Shown here piece by piece: positions 5,677-22,925 of a stretch of DNA of 46,039 bases (within the stretch, counting starts at the first letter, position 1; each line of letters opens with the position of its first letter). The stretch is taken from sequence record OL362271.1. One strand, written 5' to 3'. The notes beneath the pieces were generated by a model that was given only the letters and a program-made list of their open reading frames with translations, searched no databases and was not told where the DNA came from. The position numbers were made by a program, and so were the translations under genes. Origin of the DNA: Klebsiella phage 6939.

Positions 5677-5851
5677 TTTGTCACCTAAGAAGTTTTATGA
5701 GCTTATGATAGCTCAAGGTAGATTCATGACCATTAAGAATGATTGGCTAGTACTTGAGCCAACTGATGGACTATCAGCTCAAGAGATTATTTATCTAGCT
5801 AGTCATGGTAAAGAGTTGAAGGAATACGTTAAAACACAAGAAGCATCGTAA
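5609..5851 (+). CDS. Hypothetical protein, 80 aa (possibly 3-prime part of a frameshifted gene)
   Basis: ORF of the six-frame track with no clear RBS of its own. Last ORF before the non-coding end region. Confidence 0.3.
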   Translation: MLSLRMFNVTPRSLRGLLALEVSLSPKKFYELMIAQGRFMTIKNDWLVLEPTDGLSAQEIIYLASHGKELKEYVKTQEAS

Positions 5852-6719
5852 ACCTAAGAAGCTTACAGCAAGCTGCATTTAGTATCAGGGGCACTCTGTT
5901 ACTGGATAGCAGGCTACAGTCAACTCAAGTAGTTGGCTAGGTAGCTACCTGTAAGCTCCCTAGGAGTTAGAAATAGGTTGTGCAAGTAGCATAGCTCCTG
6001 CCTGCCTGCGTCTGCGACGTCCCCCATCGGGGTAGCTGACAATAGCTAGCAGGAAGCTTGCAGGTACTATTCAACTAGTACACTAGCACGCTGTAGCGGC
6101 TGGAAGCTGGCTAGGAGCTGCCGTAAGTAACGTAAGCTGTTGATTGTGTACTACTGTACTAGTACGCTTGATGCAGCTACGTGAAATCTGTGCAAGCCAG
6201 CAGGGCTGACAGTCACAACTTGCAAGCACAATCACTTACTGTACTCATGAACTAGTACGCTAACCAGTAGCTCACAGCAGCTGGCTAGGTAGCTTGTATC
6301 AGTTGGCTAGTACATGCAGTAGTGATAGCAGCTTTGTAGGCTGTACTATTGTACTAGTACACGGCTAGTGAGTGGCTTGTAAGTTCTATGTACTAGTAAA
6401 TTAGTACACGGCTGGGTGTATCTGTCTTTTGTTCTACCTACTCACAACTAGCTTATGGGTAGCTTACGATAGACTTACAACCTAGCTTACAGAGGCTTAC
6501 TAGGTAGCTTACAGTAGCTGACTAGGTAACTGCTGATAGCTTACTAGGGAGTTGATGAGAGCTGACTAGGTAGCTTACAGAAGCTTTCTTTATCCGGTCT
6601 ATGAAAGACCGGAAAGAGATAAGTACGATGCTAATTAAGTTACATAATAAGAAGAGGCTGTACTCCACATACACAAGCCACTAAGCCTATAGGCTACCAA
6701 TAACTAACGAGGAACTAAC
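5852..6719. repeat. Non-coding genome-end region with short-repeat arrays (TAGCTTAC, GTACTAGTAC(GCT), GCTGACTAGGTAGCTTACAG)
   Basis: 868 bp with no ORF over 60 aa and dense direct and partially palindromic short repeats. By synteny this is where the terminal repeat and left-end leader of a T7/SP6-like genome sit. Confidence 0.6.
6633..6657 (+). promoter_or_regulatory. Degenerate phage-promoter-like motif (aattaagttacataataagaagagg)
   Basis: Shares AATTAAGTTACA and GAAGAG with the promoter family but has a disturbed -5 to +1 region. Preceded by a GC hairpin at 6593-6613. Confidence 0.3.
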
Positions 6720-6902
6720 ATGAGTGTCACTAGGAACCTAAGAAGAGTCTGCAACTACTGTACGTGGTACAGCAGTATCAACGAAGCTGTGAGTGCTGTT
6801 GTCTACCATAAGAAGCTTACAAGAGGACAGCGCAAGCAATGGTTAAGGCTACCAGCCAGGAAGCGCAAACAACTTGTTATTAAGCATAGAAAGCAATGGT
6901 AA
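6720..6902 (+). CDS. Early hypothetical basic protein, 60 aa
   Basis: First ORF after the end region, with GAGG upstream. Arg/Lys-rich. Confidence 0.4.
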   Translation: MSVTRNLRRVCNYCTWYSSINEAVSAVVYHKKLTRGQRKQWLRLPARKRKQLVIKHRKQW

Positions 6903-6944
6903 CTACTTAACTATCAATAACTTACTAGGTAGCTTACATTGCTT

Positions 6945-6967
6945 CTTGTCTACTATAAGAGACAAAG
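6945..6967. repeat. Palindromic element TTGTCT-actataag-AGACAA (variant of the TTGTCTC family)
   Basis: 6-bp arms with an 8-nt spacer, in the early leader region. Confidence 0.5.
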
Positions 6968-7156
6968 TTATGTAAATCTATGTAAAGACGCTTGTTCCAG
7001 CTGTTGACAAGAGCTACATTTGTGTTGTCGGAAGCGACGTTAAACACTAAGTAGCTAACCTACTACGGGTTAGGCTCCAAGTGAGCGGTTAGCTACATGC
7101 TCTTTAACAATCTGGCTAGTGTCTTGATAGGCTTACTTAACTAACAGGTGACTATC

Positions 7157-7351
7157 ATGACTATTATCGCATCCATTAAGGAAGTTACACTGCTCAAAAC
7201 TGGTGAAACTTCTTATTACTTTACTGATGATAAAGGTATACAGCGTTCATTAAGTAAAGAGGGTTGGATAGAGGCTTGCGATGGCTTTGAATACACTAAG
7301 CATGAGCTTAAACGTAACAGAGTTATGCAGGTTAATATCTGGTATGCATAA
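7157..7351 (+). CDS. Early hypothetical protein, 64 aa
   Basis: ATG with AGGTGA 5 nt upstream. Flanked by the inverted repeat pair 7114-7132 / 7374-7392. Confidence 0.45.
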   Translation: MTIIASIKEVTLLKTGETSYYFTDDKGIQRSLSKEGWIEACDGFEYTKHELKRNRVMQVNIWYA

Positions 7352-7537
7352 AGATAGCTGCTGGCAACTAGCCAGCCTATCAAGACACTAGCTGGAAGCT
7401 CTTTAATAATTTAATCGTGTGATGCTCTTAGCTACAACTAGCCCTAGTAAAATGGTGAGCTGACGTGACCGCACTAGCGGTAATCTCTTAAGCTGTTATC
7501 AGTGATAGGCTTACTTAACAACAAAAGGTAACTTATC

Positions 7538-7723
7538 ATGAAAGTTTACGGTTTTATTAATCATTCAGGGTCTTTTGTGGAAGTTGGTAAAACAGAGCGC
7601 GGGGCAAAGATTGCCGCTAAGCGCAGGGGTTATCAGCTAACAGAAGTAGGTTATCGTAGCCATATAAATAATATGTTTATATGCACTTCTGAATTACTTG
7701 ATGGTAAGTGGATTAATAAGTGA
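7538..7723 (+). CDS. Early hypothetical protein, 61 aa
   Basis: ATG with AAGG upstream. Flanked by the inverted repeat pair 7482-7500 / 7852-7868. Confidence 0.45.
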   Translation: MKVYGFINHSGSFVEVGKTERGAKIAAKRRGYQLTEVGYRSHINNMFICTSELLDGKWINK

Positions 7724-7732
7724 GGAAAGGCA

Positions 7733-7830
7733 ATGAGTGAATTAAAGCAAATGTGCATAGCTATGGTTGTTCTAATTTCTTGCATCACAGTAGCTTGCTT
7801 AATACTTATGTATGCTGATAGATACATGTA
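7733..7830 (+). CDS. Possible 32-aa hydrophobic peptide
   Basis: GTGAGGAAAGG upstream of the ATG. Product MSELKQMCIAMVVLISCITVACLILMYADRYM is one TM helix. Too short for the ORF track. Confidence 0.25.
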
Positions 7831-7912
7831 ACTGATAAGGCTGGCGTGAGCTAGCCTATCACTGATAACAACAGAGGTAAGCTTGATAGACTAACAACAG
7901 AGGTTAACTATC

Positions 7913-8037
7913 ATGTATCAGATTCAATATCGTGTTAATGGCGCTTGGGTTAATGGAAACAGTTTCAAGACTCACAAAGAGGCTGAAGCTTATGCAAGAC
8001 AACTAAGGCGTGATTATCAGATTAAGAAAATTAAATA
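7913..8037 (+). CDS. Early hypothetical protein, 41 aa
   Basis: ATG with GAGG upstream. Flanked by the inverted repeat pair 7881-7893 / 8057-8069 and followed by a hairpin at 8044-8064. Confidence 0.35.
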
Positions 8038-8107
8038 AGGTAGCTGCCGGAATCTTTCCGGCGGTCTATCAAGCTTACTTCGACTAATTAACAACTGGAG
8101 TACATAC

Positions 8108-8506
8108 ATGAACATGATTAATGAATCTGCTTGCGTAGCTCTGCGTAAACTTCTGGAAGATGGCAACCGTGATTTAGAGGTAAGCATCTTGGGACGTAGA
8201 TGGATGGATACATATGGCAATACATACCACACGGTTTATGTAGATGTGCTATTTCCTGAGATGAGCAGCTATACAAGCTTAATAGCTACTGGTGCACCTA
8301 ACTACGGTTATGGTGATATGTGGGAGCAGACAGCTTTTAATATGTGGTTTGAGGCTACCGCATACGGTACAGATGTAGATCATGAGCTATCAGCTAAGTT
8401 AGCACAAAGCAACTTCAATACTTGCTACCTGAGCAGATTACTTAAGGCACTTAACATCAAGGTTGACTACATTGTTGTAGATGTTAAGCGAAAGAAAGAT
8501 TTGTAG
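8108..8506 (+). CDS. Early hypothetical protein, 132 aa
   Basis: Clean ORF with GGAG upstream. No motif recognised. Confidence 0.55.
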   Translation: MNMINESACVALRKLLEDGNRDLEVSILGRRWMDTYGNTYHTVYVDVLFPEMSSYTSLIATGAPNYGYGDMWEQTAFNMWFEATAYGTDVDHELSAKLAQSNFNTCYLSRLLKALNIKVDYIVVDVKRKKDL

Positions 8507-8573
8507 TAATAAACTAGCAGCCATTAGCTTATAGTGGCTGCAATGATTGTTACTAAAATAACTAAGGTAGCTT

Positions 8574-8981
8574 ATGAATAACCTAGATAGTGTAAAGCAA
8601 GCTTTCTATAAATTAGCTTTAGCTGAAATAAACCTAAGAGCTGAATCTCAGAAGATGGGAGCACCTTATAAAACTTCTGAATGGCTAAAGTTTGCTAAGC
8701 TTGTATGCTTAGATAGCTATAGCGTGCTAAGAGCTTGCGAGGTTGTATCATTATCGAGAAAACAGATTTATGTAGCTGGATTCTTATTTGTCAGGGCACT
8801 ACCAGAGCCTGATAAGAGACCTAAGAGGATTAAAGGCAAATACTATTCCAGTGAAACTAAATTAGCTGTAATCAAATTACGTAGCGAGGGCGCAACTTAT
8901 GAGGACATTACTAGATTAACTGGTATACCTTATAACACGGCATCTAAATGGGTGATGATGAATAAGGCGGGGTTACTATGA
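8574..8981 (+). CDS. Early protein with helix-turn-helix motifs, 135 aa
   Basis: Two HTH-like segments (SVLRACEVVSLSRKQIY and TYEDITRLTGIPYNTASKWV), so a possible DNA-binding regulator. Confidence 0.45.
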   Translation: MNNLDSVKQAFYKLALAEINLRAESQKMGAPYKTSEWLKFAKLVCLDSYSVLRACEVVSLSRKQIYVAGFLFVRALPEPDKRPKRIKGKYYSSETKLAVIKLRSEGATYEDITRLTGIPYNTASKWVMMNKAGLL

Positions 8982-9063
8982 GCTATCGCGGGAAAGTGTG
9001 GTTGAAAGTGGCTGTATGTTTAGCTGCTTTCTGGTTATGTGTTTACTACTTAGTGAGGTTTAT

Positions 9064-9264
9064 ATGTTAGCTATTCCAACATTAGCGGCATTCATAGCAA
9101 TGCTGGTTATTATCTTTGGCTTATCAGCCATTCACTTTCACAGAGCTAAGAAGCTCTATAACGTCACACGCAAGGGTGACAACTGGGTTGTAAGAGATTG
9201 CAAAGGGCGCTTTGTGCGCATCACTAATAACTACTGGGACGTATGCAAGCTGGGGATTAACTAA
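9064..9264 (+). CDS. Small membrane protein, 67 aa
   Basis: ATG after TGAGGT. One TM helix (LAAFIAMLVIIFGLSAI) followed by a basic tail. Confidence 0.4.
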   Translation: MLAIPTLAAFIAMLVIIFGLSAIHFHRAKKLYNVTRKGDNWVVRDCKGRFVRITNNYWDVCKLGIN

Positions 9265-9485
9265 TGAGCTTATTAACAAAACGCTTTGATGAGGTTGATG
9301 CAAAGATAACTAAGCTTCAGGAAGCAAGGAAGCGTACAGAGCCATTTAGTGCTGAATGGTGGAACATAACAAGCCTTATTGGTAAGGAACTGGATAAGCT
9401 CACAGTGATTAACAGAGCTTGTTGTGAGCAAAACTTGATTCATTACACCACAGGCTTACCAGCAGATTTAAGGATTGGATTATGA
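9264..9485 (+). CDS. Hypothetical protein, 73 aa
   Basis: ATGA-type overlap with the upstream ORF. Confidence 0.4.
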   Translation: MSLLTKRFDEVDAKITKLQEARKRTEPFSAEWWNITSLIGKELDKLTVINRACCEQNLIHYTTGLPADLRIGL

Positions 9486-9621
9486 GCTTCTTAAGCATTA
9501 TTGCAGCAGCAGAAAGCAAACTTGCCATTGCAAACTTCTTAGGCGATAAGAAGATGAGAGGTGAGGCAATTGCAGCAATTCATAAAGCTAAGTTAGAGGT
9601 AAGAAACTATGTTCGCAGATA
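9482..9621 (+). CDS. Possible 46-aa protein
   Basis: ATGA overlap with the 9264 ORF. Ala/Lys-rich helical peptide. Below the ORF-track size cutoff. Confidence 0.25.
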
Positions 9622-9827
9622 GCATAACTTACCCAGCTAACACAGTGGCGGGTATGTACAAGCAAGAGCAAGAGATTTCTAAAGCTGAGGATGCTGGCTT
9701 GTTTATTACAGCAGCAGACTTAGGAAGGGATAGCACAACACTTATTAGTTGTAATAATTGCAATGAGCCTTGCCCTTGGGAGGTAATAAGTGATAGGGGT
9801 TTATGCCCTGATTGTGAGTTTGAGTAA
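9609..9827 (+). CDS. Hypothetical protein with C-terminal CxxC...CxxC zinc-ribbon-like motif, 72 aa
   Basis: CNNC...CPDC near the C-terminus, AAGAAACTATG start context. Confidence 0.4.
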   Translation: MFADSITYPANTVAGMYKQEQEISKAEDAGLFITAADLGRDSTTLISCNNCNEPCPWEVISDRGLCPDCEFE

Positions 9828-9897
9828 CTCACTTTAAGCCAGTAGTGATTGCTGGCTTATGGGGACTTACCCAAATAACTTAACTGAGGTTAATAAG

Positions 9898-10929
9898 ATG
9901 CAAGATTTAAAAGATGCCCTGCAAAATGCTGTATTTGTCCTGAAGATGGATTCTAAAGCAACTATTAAGGGTATGGTGGCTAAGCTCAAAGAACAGGGAT
10001 TTGATGAGCAGCTATGGAATACTAAGAGCAAAGCTCTATTTGTTGAAAGCATCCAAAACCACTATGAAAGCTTGTGTGAAAGCTTGCTGGTTAATGAGCT
10101 TGATGCTCTTAAGATGGAAATAAGTATCACCATAGAGGAAGCTGGCAAAGCTTCTTTCAAGCTGGGCTCACTGCTTCTTAAAGCTCGTGAGGCTTGCGAG
10201 AATCAACAAGAGTTCCTCGACTGGGTTGATTCTAACTTTGGTATTAAAAAGGCGTGGGCGTTTAAGCTCATGAAAGTATCTCAAGTGTTTGAGGCTGAGC
10301 CGTGGAGCAAGGTTGCTACTAGTGTACTGTACCTGCTGCAAGCTCAAGCCAATGATGAGCAGATGTTGGAGGCTAAGAAGTTTGCAGAGGCTGGGAAGCT
10401 GGATATTCAAACTGTTAAAGCTTTGTTAAATCCTCCTGTGATCCCTGTACGGCCTCCAGTGGCTACGGAAAATCCAGTTGAAGCTAAGGTATCAGAAAGC
10501 GTAAGAGAGGCGCTTATGGGCGCTGAGGCTCAGGAAGTGGCACCAGCTCTTCAAACTGTAGCAGCTCCGGCAGTTCCAGAAGTTGCCGTGTCTCCTGTAG
10601 TAGACAAAAGCAACAGTGAGCTACTGGCACAAATTGCCGATATGTCAGCGACCATTAAGCAGCTCACAGAGCAGCTTGCAGAAGCTACTAAGCCGCGCTT
10701 GCGTAGCTCTAGTGATATGCCAATGTTACGCCAGTTCAATAGCCCTCTGATGCATGTGCGCTTAGGATTGAGCCAGCAAGAGGCTCAAAGTAAGGAAATC
10801 ATCTTAGAAGCTTTCAAAGAGCTTTGTAAGGCTGGCTACGGTCGAGCTCATGAAGCTTTCGCGCTGCTGGATGAGGCGCGGCATGTGCTGATTCATCAGA
10901 TTAAAGAAGTTGAAGAGGTGGCAGCATGA
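9898..10929 (+). CDS. Early hypothetical protein, 343 aa, with Pro/Ala-rich linker
   Basis: Start moved to the ATG after GAGGTTAATAAG. Two helical domains joined by PPVIPVRPPVATENPVEAK...APAVPEVAVSPV. Confidence 0.55.
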   Translation: MQDLKDALQNAVFVLKMDSKATIKGMVAKLKEQGFDEQLWNTKSKALFVESIQNHYESLCESLLVNELDALKMEISITIEEAGKASFKLGSLLLKAREACENQQEFLDWVDSNFGIKKAWAFKLMKVSQVFEAEPWSKVATSVLYLLQAQANDEQMLEAKKFAEAGKLDIQTVKALLNPPVIPVRPPVATENPVEAKVSESVREALMGAEAQEVAPALQTVAAPAVPEVAVSPVVDKSNSELLAQIADMSATIKQLTEQLAEATKPRLRSSSDMPMLRQFNSPLMHVRLGLSQQEAQSKEIILEAFKELCKAGYGRAHEAFALLDEARHVLIHQIKEVEEVAA

Positions 10930-11111
10930 TAAAGCTGTATAAATCAGATGATGGGAGCTTTATTAAATCCTCAGCAAATTATAAGAGTAGGTATTTATTT
11001 AGCAATGATGGTTATGTGTGGCGACAGCTACATAGGGTACAAGGTGATATATTAATAAGTACAGGTGTATACAGGTTAATAGGTAATAACTTCAGGCGTA
11101 ATAAGCGCTAA
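10926..11111 (+). CDS. Hypothetical protein, 61 aa
   Basis: ATGA overlap with the upstream ORF. Confidence 0.35.
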   Translation: MIKLYKSDDGSFIKSSANYKSRYLFSNDGYVWRQLHRVQGDILISTGVYRLIGNNFRRNKR

Positions 11112-11115
11112 CTAA

Positions 11116-11145
11116 CGGCGGCTCACAGTAGCCGCCTTAACTTTA
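11116..11145 (+). terminator. Stem-loop upstream of the RNAP gene (ggcggctcacagtagccgcc), attenuator or RNase III-type site
   Basis: 8-bp GC stem followed by ttaactttat. Same position relative to the RNAP gene as the T7 R1 processing site. Confidence 0.35.
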
Positions 11146-11158
11146 TAAGGTAATTAAG

Positions 11159-13843
11159 ATGTATACAGAAGAGCAGCTGATAGAAGAGCAAGTAAAGATT
11201 GAGCTAGATATGTATAACGATGGTTTGTATCGGTTCGATAAGAATAACCAGCGTCATATTGATTCGGGTAATCAGTCAGACACTGACTGGAACCGCCGTC
11301 TTATTAGCACTCTCGTAGAGCCTATGGCTGAAGGTGTAAGAGCTTATAGGGATTACTATAGTAAAGTTAACCCAGAGACGGGTAAACGCCGCACAGGTAG
11401 GCCGTCTAAGGGGTTGTCGTTAATTCGCGGTATGTCAGAGGAGCAAGTAGCTTATATAGCTATCAAAGTAATATTTGATGCTCTGGGTAATCATAAGTTT
11501 GATGCTAATTACCTTGTAACAACTATAGGCAGGAGAATAGAGGATCAATTACGCTTTGATAAGCTGGAGATGTCAGCACCTAAATATATTGAGAAGATTA
11601 AAGAGTCATTAGCTAAACGCAACTCAATAGACTACGACCATCAGCACAAAGTATTAGTATCTTCTGAGAAGAAATTAGCAGACCGAAATGCCGAGAAGGT
11701 GGCAACAGGGGAAGAATCCGAGATTACTATGCAGCGCTGGGTATCTTGGGCTGAGGAAGATTGCAAGCACGTAGGCTCATTGATGGTTAACATCTTTGAG
11801 AAGGCTGTAACCTTTGAGGGTAAGCCTATTATCGCTAAACAGATTACAGGTAGCGGTAAGACTATGAGAGCTTTCATAAGCCCTACTGAGCATGTGTGTA
11901 ACTGGATTGAGCGCTATAAGGAAGCTCTTGGCGGTTTGTCGCCAGCTTTCAGCCCTTGTGTCATCCCTCCGCGCGATTGGGTTAACCCTAACCACGGCGG
12001 CTACTATACCGATAAGCTTTCTGCAACCCTTCCACTGGTTAAGTTGCGTAATAAGCGTCATATGCGCAAGCTGACTAAGAAACAGATGCCGGAAGTGTAT
12101 GCAGCTGTAAACAGTTTGCAGCGTGTACGCTGGGCTATCAGTGAGCGCGTGTTAGCTACTGCAAATGAATTGATGGCTCTTGGCTTGCCGTATGCCTTGC
12201 CGTCAAAGAATCCTAGCGACTGGAAAGAACGCTACCCTTGCCCGGTTCCAGAGCATCTGGCAGACCTGAAAGGTGATGAGCTCAAGCAAGCCCTTAATCC
12301 TCAACAGCTGGAAGATTTTACAGAGTGGAAACAGATTGCACGTCAATCATATGAAGAGGAACAAGAGCGTGTAGCAAGTGTAAGAGAAGTTGTTAGCACT
12401 CTTGGGCAAGCTAACACTTACGTCAAATACCCAGCATTGTACTTTGTATATACTCTTGACTTCCGTGGGCGTGTCTACTGCATGAGCTCACGTGTGTCTC
12501 CACAAGGTGGCGACTTACAGAAAGCTTTAATCAAGTTTGCTGATGGTATGGCACTTGGTACAACTGGTGAATATTGGTTTAAAGTACACGGCGCTAACGA
12601 GTGGGGCTGGGATAAGAAGCCTATGGATGAGCGTGTATCCAATGTAAGCACTGAAGAGTTTAAAACAATGTGCAAGGATATTGCAGATGACCCAGTTACT
12701 TTTAACGACTGGATTCATGCTGATAAACCTTGGCAATTCCTAAACTGGTGCTTTGAGTATGCTGACTTCTTACGTCACGTGGAATCAGGTGGCAACCCAG
12801 AGGATTTTGTAAGCTATATTCCTTGTGCAATGGATGGCAGCTGCTCAGGGATTCAGCACTACTCAGCTATGCTACGTGATAGAGTTGGCGGAGCTGCTGT
12901 AAACCTTACTTACTCATCAGAGGATGGCCCACAGGATATATATGGGGCTGTGTGCAAGATTGTACTTAAGAAGCTCACAGAAATTGCTGAGGGCTATGGT
13001 GTTTATGAGGGCAAACTAGATGCCTCCTTAGCTATTGAGCTGGCTAAAGAGTGGCTGCGACTACAACCAAATCGCAGCTTAACTAAGAAGCCAGTAATGA
13101 CGTTACCGTATGGCAGCACACAGCTAACCTGTCGTGAGCATGTGAGCCAGTGGCTGAAAGATTTACAGAAGGAAGAGAACAAGACAGCCAAGGCAGAATT
13201 CCGAGAGCCTATGAAGGTTCACGCTTTTGGTGACAAGTCATCTTCTATGCCGCTTATCCATGCTGAGACTTTCATGAGCTCACTGGTGTGGTCATCAATC
13301 GGTGAGGTAGTTGTAGCAGCTCGTAGCGGTATGAAGTACATCAAAGCTATTACAACCTCAGTTGCTAAAGCTAACATGCCGCTTGAGTGGACTACTCCAA
13401 CAGGCTTTGTTGTACGCCAAGAGATTTACGAGATGGCTGACCGTCGCATCAAGACGCAGCTTATGGGTACTACAGTCTTTATTAAGCAGGAGAAAACAGA
13501 CAAGATTAACTATCACCGAATGGTTAACAGCTGTGCGCCCAACTTTGTACACTCTATGGATGCAAGCCACTTGGTGAAAGCTACTAATGCTTTTGTAGAT
13601 GCTGGTATCAGTAGCATCGCGGTGATTCATGACAGCTTTGGTACACATGCTGGTAACACTTACATCCTACGTAAGCAGTTGCCAAATTCTATGGTTGACA
13701 TGTACACAGAGCATGATGTTATTAGCAACTTCTTGCAAGAGGTGGAAGCTAAGACGCTGTTAGATTTAAGCCACATCAAGATTCCAGAAGCTGGTAGCTT
13801 GGAGCTTCAGGAAATCAATCAATCAACTTATGCATTTGCTTGA
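11159..13843 (+). CDS. Single-subunit DNA-directed RNA polymerase (T7/SP6-type)
   Basis: 894 aa, with the catalytic motif C HDSFGTHA near the C-terminus and a C-terminal YAFA-type foot. Preceded by TAAGG N5 ATG. Confidence 0.95.
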   Translation: MYTEEQLIEEQVKIELDMYNDGLYRFDKNNQRHIDSGNQSDTDWNRRLISTLVEPMAEGVRAYRDYYSKVNPETGKRRTGRPSKGLSLIRGMSEEQVAYIAIKVIFDALGNHKFDANYLVTTIGRRIEDQLRFDKLEMSAPKYIEKIKESLAKRNSIDYDHQHKVLVSSEKKLADRNAEKVATGEESEITMQRWVSWAEEDCKHVGSLMVNIFEKAVTFEGKPIIAKQITGSGKTMRAFISPTEHVCNWIERYKEALGGLSPAFSPCVIPPRDWVNPNHGGYYTDKLSATLPLVKLRNKRHMRKLTKKQMPEVYAAVNSLQRVRWAISERVLATANELMALGLPYALPSKNPSDWKERYPCPVPEHLADLKGDELKQALNPQQLEDFTEWKQIARQSYEEEQERVASVREVVSTLGQANTYVKYPALYFVYTLDFRGRVYCMSSRVSPQGGDLQKALIKFADGMALGTTGEYWFKVHGANEWGWDKKPMDERVSNVSTEEFKTMCKDIADDPVTFNDWIHADKPWQFLNWCFEYADFLRHVESGGNPEDFVSYIPCAMDGSCSGIQHYSAMLRDRVGGAAVNLTYSSEDGPQDIYGAVCKIVLKKLTEIAEGYGVYEGKLDASLAIELAKEWLRLQPNRSLTKKPVMTLPYGSTQLTCREHVSQWLKDLQKEENKTAKAEFREPMKVHAFGDKSSSMPLIHAETFMSSLVWSSIGEVVVAARSGMKYIKAITTSVAKANMPLEWTTPTGFVVRQEIYEMADRRIKTQLMGTTVFIKQEKTDKINYHRMVNSCAPNFVHSMDASHLVKATNAFVDAGISSIAVIHDSFGTHAGNTYILRKQLPNSMVDMYTEHDVISNFLQEVEAKTLLDLSHIKIPEAGSLELQEINQSTYAFA

Positions 13844-14786: not shown

Positions 14787-14808
14787 TTGTCTCCTATAAG
14801 AGACAAAA
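14787..14808. repeat. Palindromic element TTGTCTC-ctataa-GAGACAA
   Basis: 7-bp inverted arms with a 6-nt spacer, 55 nt after the early terminator. Confidence 0.6.
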
Positions 14809-15023: not shown

Positions 15024-15043
15024 TTGTCTCCTATAAGAGACAA
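15024..15043. repeat. Palindromic element TTGTCTC-ctataa-GAGACAA
   Basis: Identical copy at the end of the second promoter-repeat module. Confidence 0.6.
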
Positions 15044-22905: not shown

Positions 22906-22925
22906 TTGTCTCCTATAAGAGACAA
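22906..22925. repeat. Palindromic element TTGTCTC-ctataa-GAGACAA
   Basis: Between the SSB stop and the promoter at 22927. Confidence 0.6.

Follow-up and report, generated by a model that had tools for sequence, protein, structure and literature searches.

In the ribosomal RNA operons of bacteria, the rrn antitermination complex forms a link between boxA and the polymerase and stimulates co-transcriptional cleavage of the leader-trailer helix by RNase III (bioRxiv 10.64898/2026.03.17.712431; PMC10250234), an enzyme whose idealised E. coli substrate is a duplex of 22 bp (PMC3867540). In suhB and in lambda N, a boxA or nut site near the Shine-Dalgarno (SD) sequence represses translation via an RNA loop to the elongating polymerase; for lambda N, it is Nus factors and N bound at nutL that repress N translation (PMC5725501). 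In phage T7, boxA lies past the early promoters and is reported to be functional in antitermination (PMC3709561).

Here we describe an early region of Klebsiella phage 6939 that invites comparison with these systems. The window referred to below is the whole stretch of DNA that was analysed, 46,039 nt in length. An initial annotation, made from the letters alone, had proposed that three consecutive small genes are each bracketed by their own pair of inverted repeats. Since the repeats form conserved helices that enclose the genes, the first of them right after a copy of the rrn-type boxA, the early operon of this SP6-like phage appears to mimic the bacterial transcription and excision of rRNAs.

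Results

The longest inverted repeats of the window, with arms up to 1500 nt apart, are the three pairs that flank these genes. Three repeats reach 15 nt or more, whereas 100 shuffled sequences gave 0.01 on average and never more than 1. Pair 1 is perfect over 19 nt (7115-7133/7374-7392) and extends to 23 bp, including two G:U pairs, at 7111-7133/7374-7396. Pair 2 is a perfect repeat of 18 nt (7494-7511/7853-7870), and pair 3 comprises 18 bp with one G:U (7874-7891/8064-8081), of which 15 nt are perfect. The arms of a pair are separated by 172-341 nt. On the + strand of the window a core, TGATAG[GA]C, is found at just three places, always in these cassettes. The three pairs postulated in the initial annotation are therefore real, with arms longer (18-23 bp) than it had given. 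For pair 2 the sequence was right and the left arm, placed at 7484-7499, was some 10-12 nt off; the third repeat likewise exists, 2-7 nt from the positions assigned to it.

The initial annotation had also noted a shared spacer motif, 'ctctttaacaat'. The motif is real but its identity had been missed: it is an rrn-type boxA (GCUCUUUAACAA or a close variant), present at 7099-7110 and 7398-7409. This is the key point that was not recognised, as the comparison with rRNA operons hinges on it. The first copy (GCTCTTTAACAA) agrees at 12/12 positions with the boxA of the E. coli rrn leader (L059:5602) and is identical to the T7 boxA at 813. The second (GCTCTTTAATAA) agrees at 11/12, deviating at a position where the rrn leader and spacer copies disagree too (C and A, respectively). 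Since the identical T7 element is reported to be functional, the window boxA is a putative NusB/NusE-binding antitermination element.

The elements from 7099 to 8081 all run on the + strand. BoxA no. 1 leads with no gap into the 5' arm of helix 1 (7111-7133), which consists of a variable outer part and the conserved core UGAUAGGCU and pairs with 7374-7396. It is followed by a leader with its SD (7134-7156), as read from the sequence and a leader alignment; core and leader together contain stop codons in all three frames. The enclosed ORF (7157-7351) encodes 64 aa that match no known family. Beyond it lies a local hairpin, GAUAG-CU-GCUGGC-loop-GCCAGC-CUAUC (7353-7381; -15.7 kcal/mol), and then the 3' arm (7374-7396). 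One nucleotide past helix 1 comes boxA no. 2, which is not itself followed directly by a helix. Immediately before helix 2, at 7469-7493, we read a small hairpin, CCGCACTAGCGG, and then CTCTTAAGC, which may tentatively be taken, from its letters, as a weak resemblance to a lambda-like boxA. This resemblance is all that cassette 2 has in the way of a boxA, and cassette 3 has none.

Helix 2 (7494-7511 with 7853-7870) encloses two ORFs, at 7538-7723 (ORF 2a, 61 aa, phrog_7744) and 7733-7831 (ORF 2b, a hydrophobic peptide of 32 aa), so that the initial proposal of one ORF per repeat pair fails for this cassette. Its local 3' hairpin spans 7833-7861 (-17.4 kcal/mol). Three nucleotides past the end of helix 2 the 5' arm of helix 3 begins (7874-7891, its single G:U being 7876:8079). 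ORF 3 (7913-8038) encodes 41 aa and is followed by the third local hairpin (8039-8070; -20.7 kcal/mol) and by the 3' arm (8064-8081), which runs straight into the leader of the gene at 8108. A leader of the form GCTTAC..TAAC..AGGT.ACT.ATCATG is indeed common to the three genes, as had been noticed; the gene at 8108, which had been credited with the same leader, is only loosely similar in the alignment.

Homologous cassettes were located by a DNA-pattern scan of viral contigs, a search anchored on the RNA polymerase having given only 4 loci. The scan yielded 44 distinct cassettes with 26 different variable segments, in SP6-like phages, T7-like phages and one T5-like phage. Covariation was computed on an ungapped alignment of the arms only; a MAFFT alignment with flanks put in gaps and lost the register. 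Across 38-44 distinct cassettes, the outer 10-12 bp vary in sequence and retain complementarity. In the ungapped alignment 96.7% of cells pair, compared with 71.8% after shuffling (0/500 shuffles equalled the observed value), and in slid-register controls 24-39% do so. Both sides change at 13 of the 20 pairs, with a covariation score of 0.654 versus 0.160. For positions 1-10, outside the invariant 8-bp core, the 44 cassettes contain 389 Watson-Crick pairs, 47 G:U, 1 A:C and 3 others, read on the sense strand; among 26 representatives G:U again exceeds A:C, by 22 to 1. One cassette (L056) has six G:U pairs and is for that reason a poor repeat as DNA and a good helix as RNA. Compensatory variants of helix 2 are found in Reminis, PP99, DT115P1 and vB_Kp_H01, and the arm of helix 1 covaries in relatives.

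The helix measures 16-27 bp in 43 of the 44 cassettes, mostly 18-23 bp, and in no case does an arm intrude between SD and stop codon. In single-gene cassettes the distance from stop to core is constant at 20-27 nt. A local 3' hairpin of the same type, 11-14 bp long, is present in 48 of 49 cassettes; through its 3' strand it shares the core of the 3' arm and so represents an alternative pairing. The inner 8 bp of the long-range helix, being invariant, are beyond proof by covariation. In the thermodynamic ensemble helix 1 has a predicted pair probability of 0.95 on average and helix 3 one of 0.985, helix 2 reaching only 0.14. BoxA adjoins the 5' arm in 31/44 cassettes, its end falling -3 to +4 nt from the start of the helix in 29 of these, and a boxA lies -1 to +5 nt past the 3' arm in 18/44. 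A second class of helix, without the GATAG core, starts 2 nt past boxA; in SP6 it is 30 bp long and encloses gp2-gp4. No comparable helices were found beyond the early region in a scan of the 46-kb window, and an Rfam scan of 5800-11200 (E up to 10) returned only two chance matches.

Because the outer arms covary, and because the pairs that depart from Watson-Crick geometry are G:U on the sense strand and not A:C, comparative sequence analysis strongly supports the view that the repeats are long-range RNA helices, not DNA sites. Of the roles floated in the initial annotation, long-range mRNA stems around each cistron is the one that these data favour. Its suggestion of oriented binding sites for a regulator finds no support, as the outer halves of the arms differ between cassettes and stay complementary.

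The arms are not promoters for a single-subunit phage RNA polymerase. The consensus of this genome's phage-polymerase promoter, AAGTTACACAATAGA, is represented by eight sites, all outside the early region; none lies in 5900-11150, and the arms do not match it. A consensus promoter and terminator scan of the + strand gave nothing useful. A position-weight-matrix scan found no strong sigma-70 promoter upstream of the window boxA, the best scoring about 9 bits, and one candidate of about 9 bits is the boxA/5'-arm element itself. A consensus sigma-70 promoter does occur 20-110 nt 5' of the first boxA-helix unit in PP99, Entb_48, SP6, K1-5, K30 and Kc166A. We also rejected the combination of long-range stem and CUCUUU as an intrinsic terminator, since only helix 1 precedes a CUCUUU, which itself belongs to boxA.

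The three cargo proteins are mutually unrelated, and Pfam and PHROGs assigned no function to them. The idea of a tandemly amplified cassette therefore holds for the regulatory frame but not for the genes. Among the homologous cassettes, 33 unrelated families of cargo gene occupy the same frame, as cistrons of 32-88 aa with their own SD in loops of 150-580 nt. Homologues of ORF 2a are found in unrelated Vibrio and jumbo phages without the frame; a homologue of ORF 2b makes up the entire cargo of a different cassette in PP99 and JSF38, and ORF 3 has a homologue framed in the same way in Edwardsiella phage DT115P1. Cassette 1 recurs at 83-91% identity in otherwise dissimilar phages, with the ends of the match falling at boxA copies. 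Presence/absence polymorphism was also observed: between K30 and K11, one cassette is cleanly present or absent between boxA repeats (two 12-bp direct repeats). In evolution the frame is a portable module: recombination within the conserved flanks exchanges cargo genes as well as entire cassettes. The proposal of mobile mini-cassettes was partly right, in an evolutionary sense, in that units are exchanged, gained and lost between boxA repeats; the repeats are unlike the terminal repeats of transposons.

Discussion

These results suggest a model in which the region is an array of expression frames, each running from boxA through 5' arm, leader and SD, ORF, local hairpin and 3' arm to the next boxA. 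Each helix of 18-23 bp closes a loop containing one small early cistron (two in cassette 2) with its SD and 3' hairpin. The early region would be transcribed by host RNA polymerase, and the boxA RNA would recruit NusB/NusE, other Nus factors and SuhB, making the polymerase fast and Rho-resistant and holding boxA, together with the 5' arm next to it, on a tether at the RNA exit. The helix would close once the 3' arm emerges, 170-340 nt later, and RNase III would then cut both strands near its middle. Such a cut should sever the cistron from the boxA/polymerase tether, leaving translation unhindered, and also from neighbouring cistrons. The freed mRNA might keep its paired 5'/3' end or refold into the 3' hairpin, and the next boxA, if present, would reload the complex. 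We infer the cleavage, the tether and the reloading. Taken as a whole, we give a probability of roughly 0.6 to the proposal that Nus-modified host polymerase closes each helix and that RNase III frees each cistron. In length the helices agree with the 22-bp ideal of the enzyme; helices 2 and 3 of the window (18 bp) fall below it.

The pairing could also serve without cleavage, the helices acting as insulators that provide each portable cistron with a folding context of its own, as protective clamps of 5'/3' ends or as modulators of the boxA/Nus loop or of translation. Covariation and G:U pairs speak for pairing and not for cutting, several helices have only 16-19 bp, the conserved alternative local hairpin suggests a switch, and GC pairs at certain positions can make of a helix a site that RNase III binds and leaves uncut (PMC3867540). 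We nonetheless consider this unlikely, as unbroken duplexes of 20-27 bp, on a transcript presumably made by host polymerase, are of the ideal RNase III length, and in the closest architectural analogue, boxA with the leader-trailer helix of rrn, RNase III does cut the helix. It is a good deal less probable that the left element is a sigma-70 promoter (-35 TTAACA within 'boxA', 18-bp spacer, extended -10 TGnTAGGCT) giving each micro-gene its own promoter, with the right arm an inverted partial copy; the repeats would in that case stem from promoter duplication or from events at the DNA level. TTAACA-18-TGaTAGGCT at 7104-7133 does share the top promoter-like score within 5800-8200 (9.3 bits), 26 of 31 boxA-type cassettes have a spacer of 17-18 bp, and a good promoter, TTGAC(T/A)-17-TACATT, coincides with the 3' arm of the second-class helix in SP6 and K1-5. 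This leaves unexplained both the reverse-complement repeat of the spacer downstream and the sense-strand ratio of G:U to A:C (47:1). Moreover, in four cassettes the spacer is 20-22 bp and the helix longer to match, window cassettes 2 and 3 lack a -35 at a workable distance (ranks 112 and 10), and in K30, Kc166A, PP99 and Entb_48 the arm is transcribed, since a consensus promoter lies just upstream.

Two further readings place the function in DNA. That the repeats are terminal inverted repeats of miniature mobile elements, read by a transposase or recombinase, would fit the K30/K11 polymorphism between 12-bp direct repeats, the 33 unrelated cargo families in one frame and the recurrence of cassette 1 (83-91% identical) in dissimilar phages with ends at boxA copies. 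We judge it very improbable: the direct repeats are the host signal boxA, the same at every site, and not variable target duplications; the tips of the repeats vary while their inner ends are conserved, the reverse of transposon ends; mismatches are strand-asymmetric G:U; no recombinase is associated; and recombination between boxA copies accounts for loss and gain. The same variable tips, invariant flanking boxA and G:U asymmetry set the repeats apart from those of transposons and MITEs generally. That the GATAG-core repeats are paired operators for a DNA-binding regulator, such as the HTH protein encoded nearby at 8574-8981, is scarcely credible. The core of 8-9 bp is invariant and a palindrome, TATCAGTGATA, lies within the cassette 2 arm, but a protein site would not need the outer 10-14 bp to covary between copies, nor accept G:T yet refuse A:C, and the elements also occur in phages without that HTH gene, e.g. 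K30 and SP6. A paper on palindromes that trigger DdmABC proved tangential to these repeats.

More broadly, the immediate-early operons of several unrelated groups of lytic phages (SP6-like, some T7-like and at least one T5-like) might all be mimics of the host rRNA operon, with a helix around a protein-coding cassette whose closure is chaperoned by boxA/Nus/SuhB, release of a closed-ended, translatable mRNA by RNase III, and reloading; for this we would not quite offer even odds. If true, this would be the first case of messenger RNAs being looped co-transcriptionally in the manner of rrn, and the machinery supposedly reserved for rRNA folding and processing (boxA/Nus/SuhB, leader-trailer helix, RNase III) would be seen to serve mRNAs as well, through viral mimicry. 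It would also amount to a portable 'expression frame' for plugging in accessory genes. The cassettes would offer a compact, genetically tractable test of RNA looping by the antitermination complex, with loops of 200-350 nt versus 1.7 kb, and a natural insulating and processing part for synthetic operons. The proposal accounts for a conserved feature of the least understood region of T7/SP6-type phages, that of small early host-takeover and anti-defence genes, and suggests that such genes are exchanged as ready-to-express modules. Full-text literature searches on the motif sequences, and on boxA in connection with SP6, K1-5 or Autographiviridae, turned up no earlier account of the helices in the sources covered, among which the SP6 genome paper is not included.

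Several known systems share part of this architecture. Arbiol et al. reportedly found in 2010 that promoter-early stem-loop (PeSL) cassettes of T4-type phages flank small variable early ORFs and seem to mediate their recombinational shuffling. The likeness lies in short conserved regulatory modules around small variable early ORFs; a PeSL combines a promoter with a local stem-loop, and is not known to include a boxA or a gene-spanning helix. As in lambda nutL-N and E. coli suhB, boxA in the phage cassettes stands not far 5' of an SD. In lambda N, repression is relieved by a cut between nutL and the SD, the RNase III site there being a local structure. Lambda needs the phage protein N and boxB, whereas no N-like gene was recognised in this phage.

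T7 and T3 carry the same boxA in the same place, after the early promoters (A1-A3) and before the first genes, and in K30 and Kc166A a cassette lies exactly between boxA and the R0.3/gene 0.3 region. The RNase III sites of T7 (R0.3, R0.5, R1, R1.1 and R1.3) share with the phage helices the presumed role of separating early cistrons. R0.5 and R1 begin with TGATAG(A/T)C, which in R0.5 pairs with UAUCA, followed by a leader of the CTTTACTTA type. However, the T7 sites are local intergenic hairpins of about 50 nt with an internal loop, whereas here the strands flank the gene. The single boxA of T7 lacks a long-range partner (at best 9 bp). With arms 172-341 nt apart, local hairpins of 11-14 bp and no Rfam match, the window elements are not T7-type RNase III sites. 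T7 grows without RNase III, and any effect of the enzyme may therefore be quantitative.

The closest parallel is with rrn itself. The boxA of E. coli rrn (GCTCTTTAACAA) is the same as that of the window, and the phage early region is, like rrn, probably transcribed by host polymerase. In rrn, where boxA precedes the leader-trailer helix of 16S (and 23S), the 16S helix begins with no gap after boxA and has 26 bp, two of them G:U; cassette 1 of the window likewise shows no gap, its helix having 23 bp, again with two G:U. The 5' strand of the phage helix starts 0-4 nt past boxA, as in rrn, and a further boxA past the 3' strand recalls that of the rrn spacer; 'TCTGG' follows boxA in the rrn spacer and in phage and T7 copies alike. 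Of the hallmarks of a leader-trailer helix, the window shows a flanking helix of at least about 17-20 bp (23, 18 and 18 bp), compensatory change and, in cassette 1, adjacency to boxA. In contrast to rrn, where the loop is a stable RNA of 1.5-2.9 kb, the phage loop is 150-580 nt long with a translated cistron of 32-88 aa and its SD; boxC and a clear boxB are lacking, and there is a conserved GAUAG/CUAUC core with a competing local 3' hairpin. Since it encloses protein-coding ORFs and not rRNA, the phage helix is not a member of the rrn leader-trailer family, but it would work like one and may likewise be cut by RNase III.

Three small early genes of phage 6939 are each enclosed by an inverted repeat

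The initial annotation described three inverted-repeat pairs, each bracketing one small gene. All three pairs exist, with coordinates shifted by 1-12 nt from those first reported, and their arms are reverse-complementary well past 8-9 nt, over 23, 18 and 18 bp. Pair 1, around the ORF at 7157-7351, is perfect over 19 nt (7115-7133/7374-7392) and extends to 23 bp with two G:U pairs (7111-7133/7374-7396). Pair 2 is perfect over 18 nt (7494-7511/7853-7870), and pair 3, around the ORF at 7913-8038, has 18 bp with one G:U (7874-7891/8064-8081). Cassette 2 had been credited with a single ORF (7538-7723, 61 aa), and a second had been missed at 7733-7831, encoding a 32-aa hydrophobic peptide (…CLILMYADRYM). 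The cargo proteins of the three cassettes are mutually unrelated. With arms up to 1500 nt apart, these pairs are the three longest inverted repeats in the genome; three repeats of at least 15 nt were observed, against a mean of 0.01 in 100 shuffles, and on the + strand the core TGATAG[GA]C occurs only at the three cassettes. A perfect 14-nt inverted repeat at 9529-9542/10373-10386, also present in KL01, has its arms inside two ORFs, 830 nt apart; it is probably incidental, because chance alone would give about 0.3 repeats of this kind.

The genome is complete, circularly permuted and SP6/ECBP5-like (Autographiviridae), and its closest relatives are Klebsiella phage KL01 and Ralstonia phage Reminis. 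A single-subunit RNA polymerase gene lies at 11159-13843, and the SP6-like promoter consensus ATAAAGTTACACAATAGA has eight sites (1877, 16674, 21632, 22931, 23055, 26109, 30191 and 31930), none of them between ~5900 and 11150. The early region of Autographiviridae is transcribed by the host polymerase, and the lack of phage-polymerase promoters in this interval therefore assigns the three cassettes to it. A clear early promoter was not found in this window. A non-coding stretch dense in ACTAGTAC-type octamers (6040-6420) separates the last late gene from the early region and looks like a terminal-repeat or concatemer-junction region. In the stretches 6440-6600 and 6926-6938, four tandem 22-bp, CTAGGTAGCTTACAGTAGCTGA-like units (6500-6597) are accompanied by more copies of TAGGTAGCTTACA/GCTTAC directly 5' of the first early gene; this motif, with 11 occurrences against 2.25 expected, is possibly part of a genome-end or early-promoter region. 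Four copies of a conserved hairpin, TTGTCTCCTATAAGAGACAA (CTATAA loop on a 7-bp stem), lie at 6944-6963, 14787-14806, 15024-15043 and 22906-22925, two of them directly 5' of phage-polymerase promoters; the hairpin may act as a terminator, mark a pause site or bind a regulator. The early gene at 8574-8981 encodes a 135-aa protein with a C-terminal helix-turn-helix domain (Pfam HTH_23, E = 4.6e-8).

Covariation supports pairing of the arms as RNA

The same module was found in the SP6-like phages KL01, Reminis, Edwardsiella phage DT115P1, MR4, PP99, Nufs112, JSF38, Roth32, vB_Kp_Z1, mutPK1A2, K1-5, SP6 and vB_Kp_H01, in the T7-like Studiervirinae K30 and Kc166A, in Proteus phage T2-2 and Enterobacter phage Entb_48 and, by a DNA-pattern scan, in uncultivated viral contigs. 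An invariant inner core, UGAUAG(G/A)C, pairs with G(C/U)CUAUCA; the outer part of the arms varies between cassettes and is complementary inside each. Pairs at positions 1-10 beyond the core were tallied in 44 distinct cassettes, which have 26 different variable segments among them: 389 were Watson-Crick, 47 G:U, one A:C and three other. With one representative per segment, the count was 22 G:U to one A:C, and every position showed three to five pair types. Standard pairs filled 96.7% of cells in an ungapped arm alignment, compared with 71.8% after shuffling (0/500 shuffles reached 96.7%), and fell to 24-39% when the partner was slid by 1-3 columns; both sides change in 13/20 pairs, and the covariation score was 0.654 versus 0.160. 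A transition in double-stranded DNA is equally likely to leave G:T or A:C. The 47:1 ratio on the coding strand therefore indicates selection for pairing in the sense transcript. In one cassette, six of the pairs are G:U. The arms never enter the interval from Shine-Dalgarno sequence to stop codon, and in single-gene cassettes the distance from stop codon to 3' core stays within 20-27 nt. Mean pair probabilities (ViennaRNA) were 0.95 for helix 1, 0.985 for helix 3 and only 0.14 for helix 2. Despite this low value, helix 2 gains support from compensatory changes seen in Reminis, PP99, DT115P1 and vB_Kp_H01. These comparisons strongly support the proposal, made earlier among others, that the repeats are RNA stems enclosing cistrons.

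Two other readings treat the repeats as DNA elements, either operator sites or transposon-like terminal repeats, and both are at odds with the covariation of the non-conserved outer halves together with the strand asymmetry. A third would make the left element a sigma-70 promoter, TTAACA-18-TGnTAGGCT. Its score of 9.3 bits equals the best in the region and a promoter-type spacer of 17-18 bp is present in 26/31 cases, so that a secondary promoter role may exist; however, a promoter explains neither the reverse-complement copy nor the G:U asymmetry, and it cannot account for four cassettes with 20-22-bp spacers or for cassettes 2 and 3. The palindrome AGCCTATAGGCT (6685-6696), directly 5' of the first early gene's leader, resembles the 3' core joined to the 5' core; the gene at 6720-6902 is otherwise without a bracketing helix.

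The helices are often flanked by boxA

The shared upstream spacer first recorded as ctctttaa(c/t)aat is boxA, GCTCTTTAACAA. The same 12-mer lies 5' of 16S in the E. coli rrn operon, with GCTCTTTAAAAA-TCTGG in the 16S-23S spacer, and the rrn leader sequence used as a query matched 5426/5426 E. coli genomes, at a median of seven places each. In T7 and T3 an identical 12-mer directly follows promoter A3 and precedes RNase III site R0.3; for the T7 boxA, an antitermination function has been reported, and mutating it makes gp2 dispensable (Savalia et al. 2010, per PMC3709561). In phage 6939, boxA at 7099-7110 abuts helix 1, which begins at 7111, and a second copy with one mismatch (7398-7409) begins 1 nt past its 3' arm. 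Helices 2 and 3 are short and lack a good boxA. Overall, boxA lies 5' of the helix in 31/44 cassettes (gap -3 to +4 nt in 29/31) and -1 to +5 nt from the 3' arm in 18/44.

The architecture is broader than the GATAG core. In SP6 (L062, 926-1547), a 30-bp helix around gp2-gp4 (940-969/1491-1520) starts 2 nt past the second boxA (926), with a boxA-like sequence 3' of it at 1536; equivalents of this boxA-adjoining class without the core occur in K1-5, mutPK1A2, vB_Kp_H01 and T2-2. The 3' arm of the SP6 helix coincides with a consensus sigma-70 promoter, TTGACT-17-TACATT. For the last boxA of each array, and for the single boxA of T7, T3 and K11, no long-range partner rose above background. Pectobacterium phage My1 (122 kb; L022, L047), which is T5-like, also has a boxA-helix-gene-helix-boxA cassette (23 bp, one G:U), located in its pre-early terminal-repeat region, so the frame extends beyond Autographiviridae. 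In K1-5 (L061), a 36-codon ORF at 1315-1425, MKGLICVERMVNGKLEILPLENQSSFKEWYGCFSLI, lies between boxA copies at 1255 and 1467 and is not annotated in RefSeq.

Cassettes exchange their cargo

Across 52 distinct cassettes, the cargo genes fall into 33 unrelated families. The helix sequence …TAGTGTCT… frames eight different cargoes, and several families are each found in two or three different helices. The 61-aa protein of cassette 2 has 84% identity to a vB_Kp_H01 protein whose gene is enclosed by another helix, of 20 bp, flanked on either side by boxA, and has a homologue without any frame in the unrelated Vibrio phage MAR10. A homologue of the 32-aa peptide is the sole cargo of another cassette in PP99 and JSF38, indicating that cargo moves between frames. 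Presence or absence of individual cassettes among relatives, as envisaged in the initial annotation, is seen cleanly in K30 versus K11, which differ by exactly one unit of a cassette plus one boxA between two boxA copies, the flanks being otherwise collinear. BLAST matches of cassette 1 in distant phages stop at boxA copies. Together, the cargo swaps, the K30/K11 difference and these match ends therefore define the frame as a portable unit, one that is gained, lost and reloaded through recombination in its conserved flanks.

A likely mechanism, and its counterpart in rrn operons

In rrn operons, boxA RNA, once bound by NusB/NusE, seeds assembly of a complex with NusA, NusG and SuhB that gives ~2-fold faster elongation and Rho resistance; by bridging the leader to polymerase, the complex keeps the halves of the RNase III helix near each other and 'dramatically' increases processing by RNase III during transcription (bioRxiv 10.64898/2026.03.17.712431; PMC10250234). 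As at suhB, a boxA near a Shine-Dalgarno sequence represses translation through this loop, a case likened to lambda, in which translation of N is repressed by N itself and Nus factors bound at nutL (PMC5725501). Phage helix lengths cluster at 18-23 bp; an idealised E. coli RNase III substrate has 22 bp (PMC3867540).

Reasoning from the rrn literature, we consider RNase III processing coupled to boxA the most likely mechanism, with a probability of roughly 0.6. The host polymerase, modified at boxA, would carry the 5' arm along and close the helix once the 3' arm emerged; RNase III would then cut both strands, releasing a monocistronic mRNA no longer joined to its neighbours or to the tether, and the next boxA would reload the complex. 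That the helix works without cleavage is a serious alternative. A local hairpin that uses the 3' core (-15.7 to -20.7 kcal/mol) is conserved in 48/49 cassettes. Under the cleavage model it may serve as a 3'-terminal stabiliser, or it may stack on the outer helix, and the invariant core fits either role. The core and leader (TGATAGGCTTACTTAACTAA) include stop codons for all three frames, which may contribute to their conservation.

The accessible literature describes T7 boxA and the rrn helices, but our searches of it turned up no account of helices that bracket genes in the early operons of phages; the boxA copies may already be mentioned in the original genome papers on SP6 and K1-5, which lay outside that search. 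Similarities to the sequence of an E. coli rrn operon (L059) may reflect descent from rrn, mimicry or chance: the 5' arm of helix 3 (7877-7889, GTAAGCTTGATAG) shares a 13-nt identity with the trailer just 3' of 23S rRNA (~10583-10595), the rrn 16S helix terminates in CUGAUAG/UUAUCAG, and TCTGG comes after boxA both in the rrn spacer and in the phages. In the E. coli rrn leader, boxA is followed at gap 0 by a helix around 16S rRNA that runs uninterrupted for 26 bp and includes two G:U pairs; measured in the same way, cassette 1 has boxA, gap 0 and a 23-bp helix with two G:U pairs around a 64-codon gene. On the proposed mechanism, the leader-trailer and boxA logic of rrn operons is applied here to phage mRNAs.
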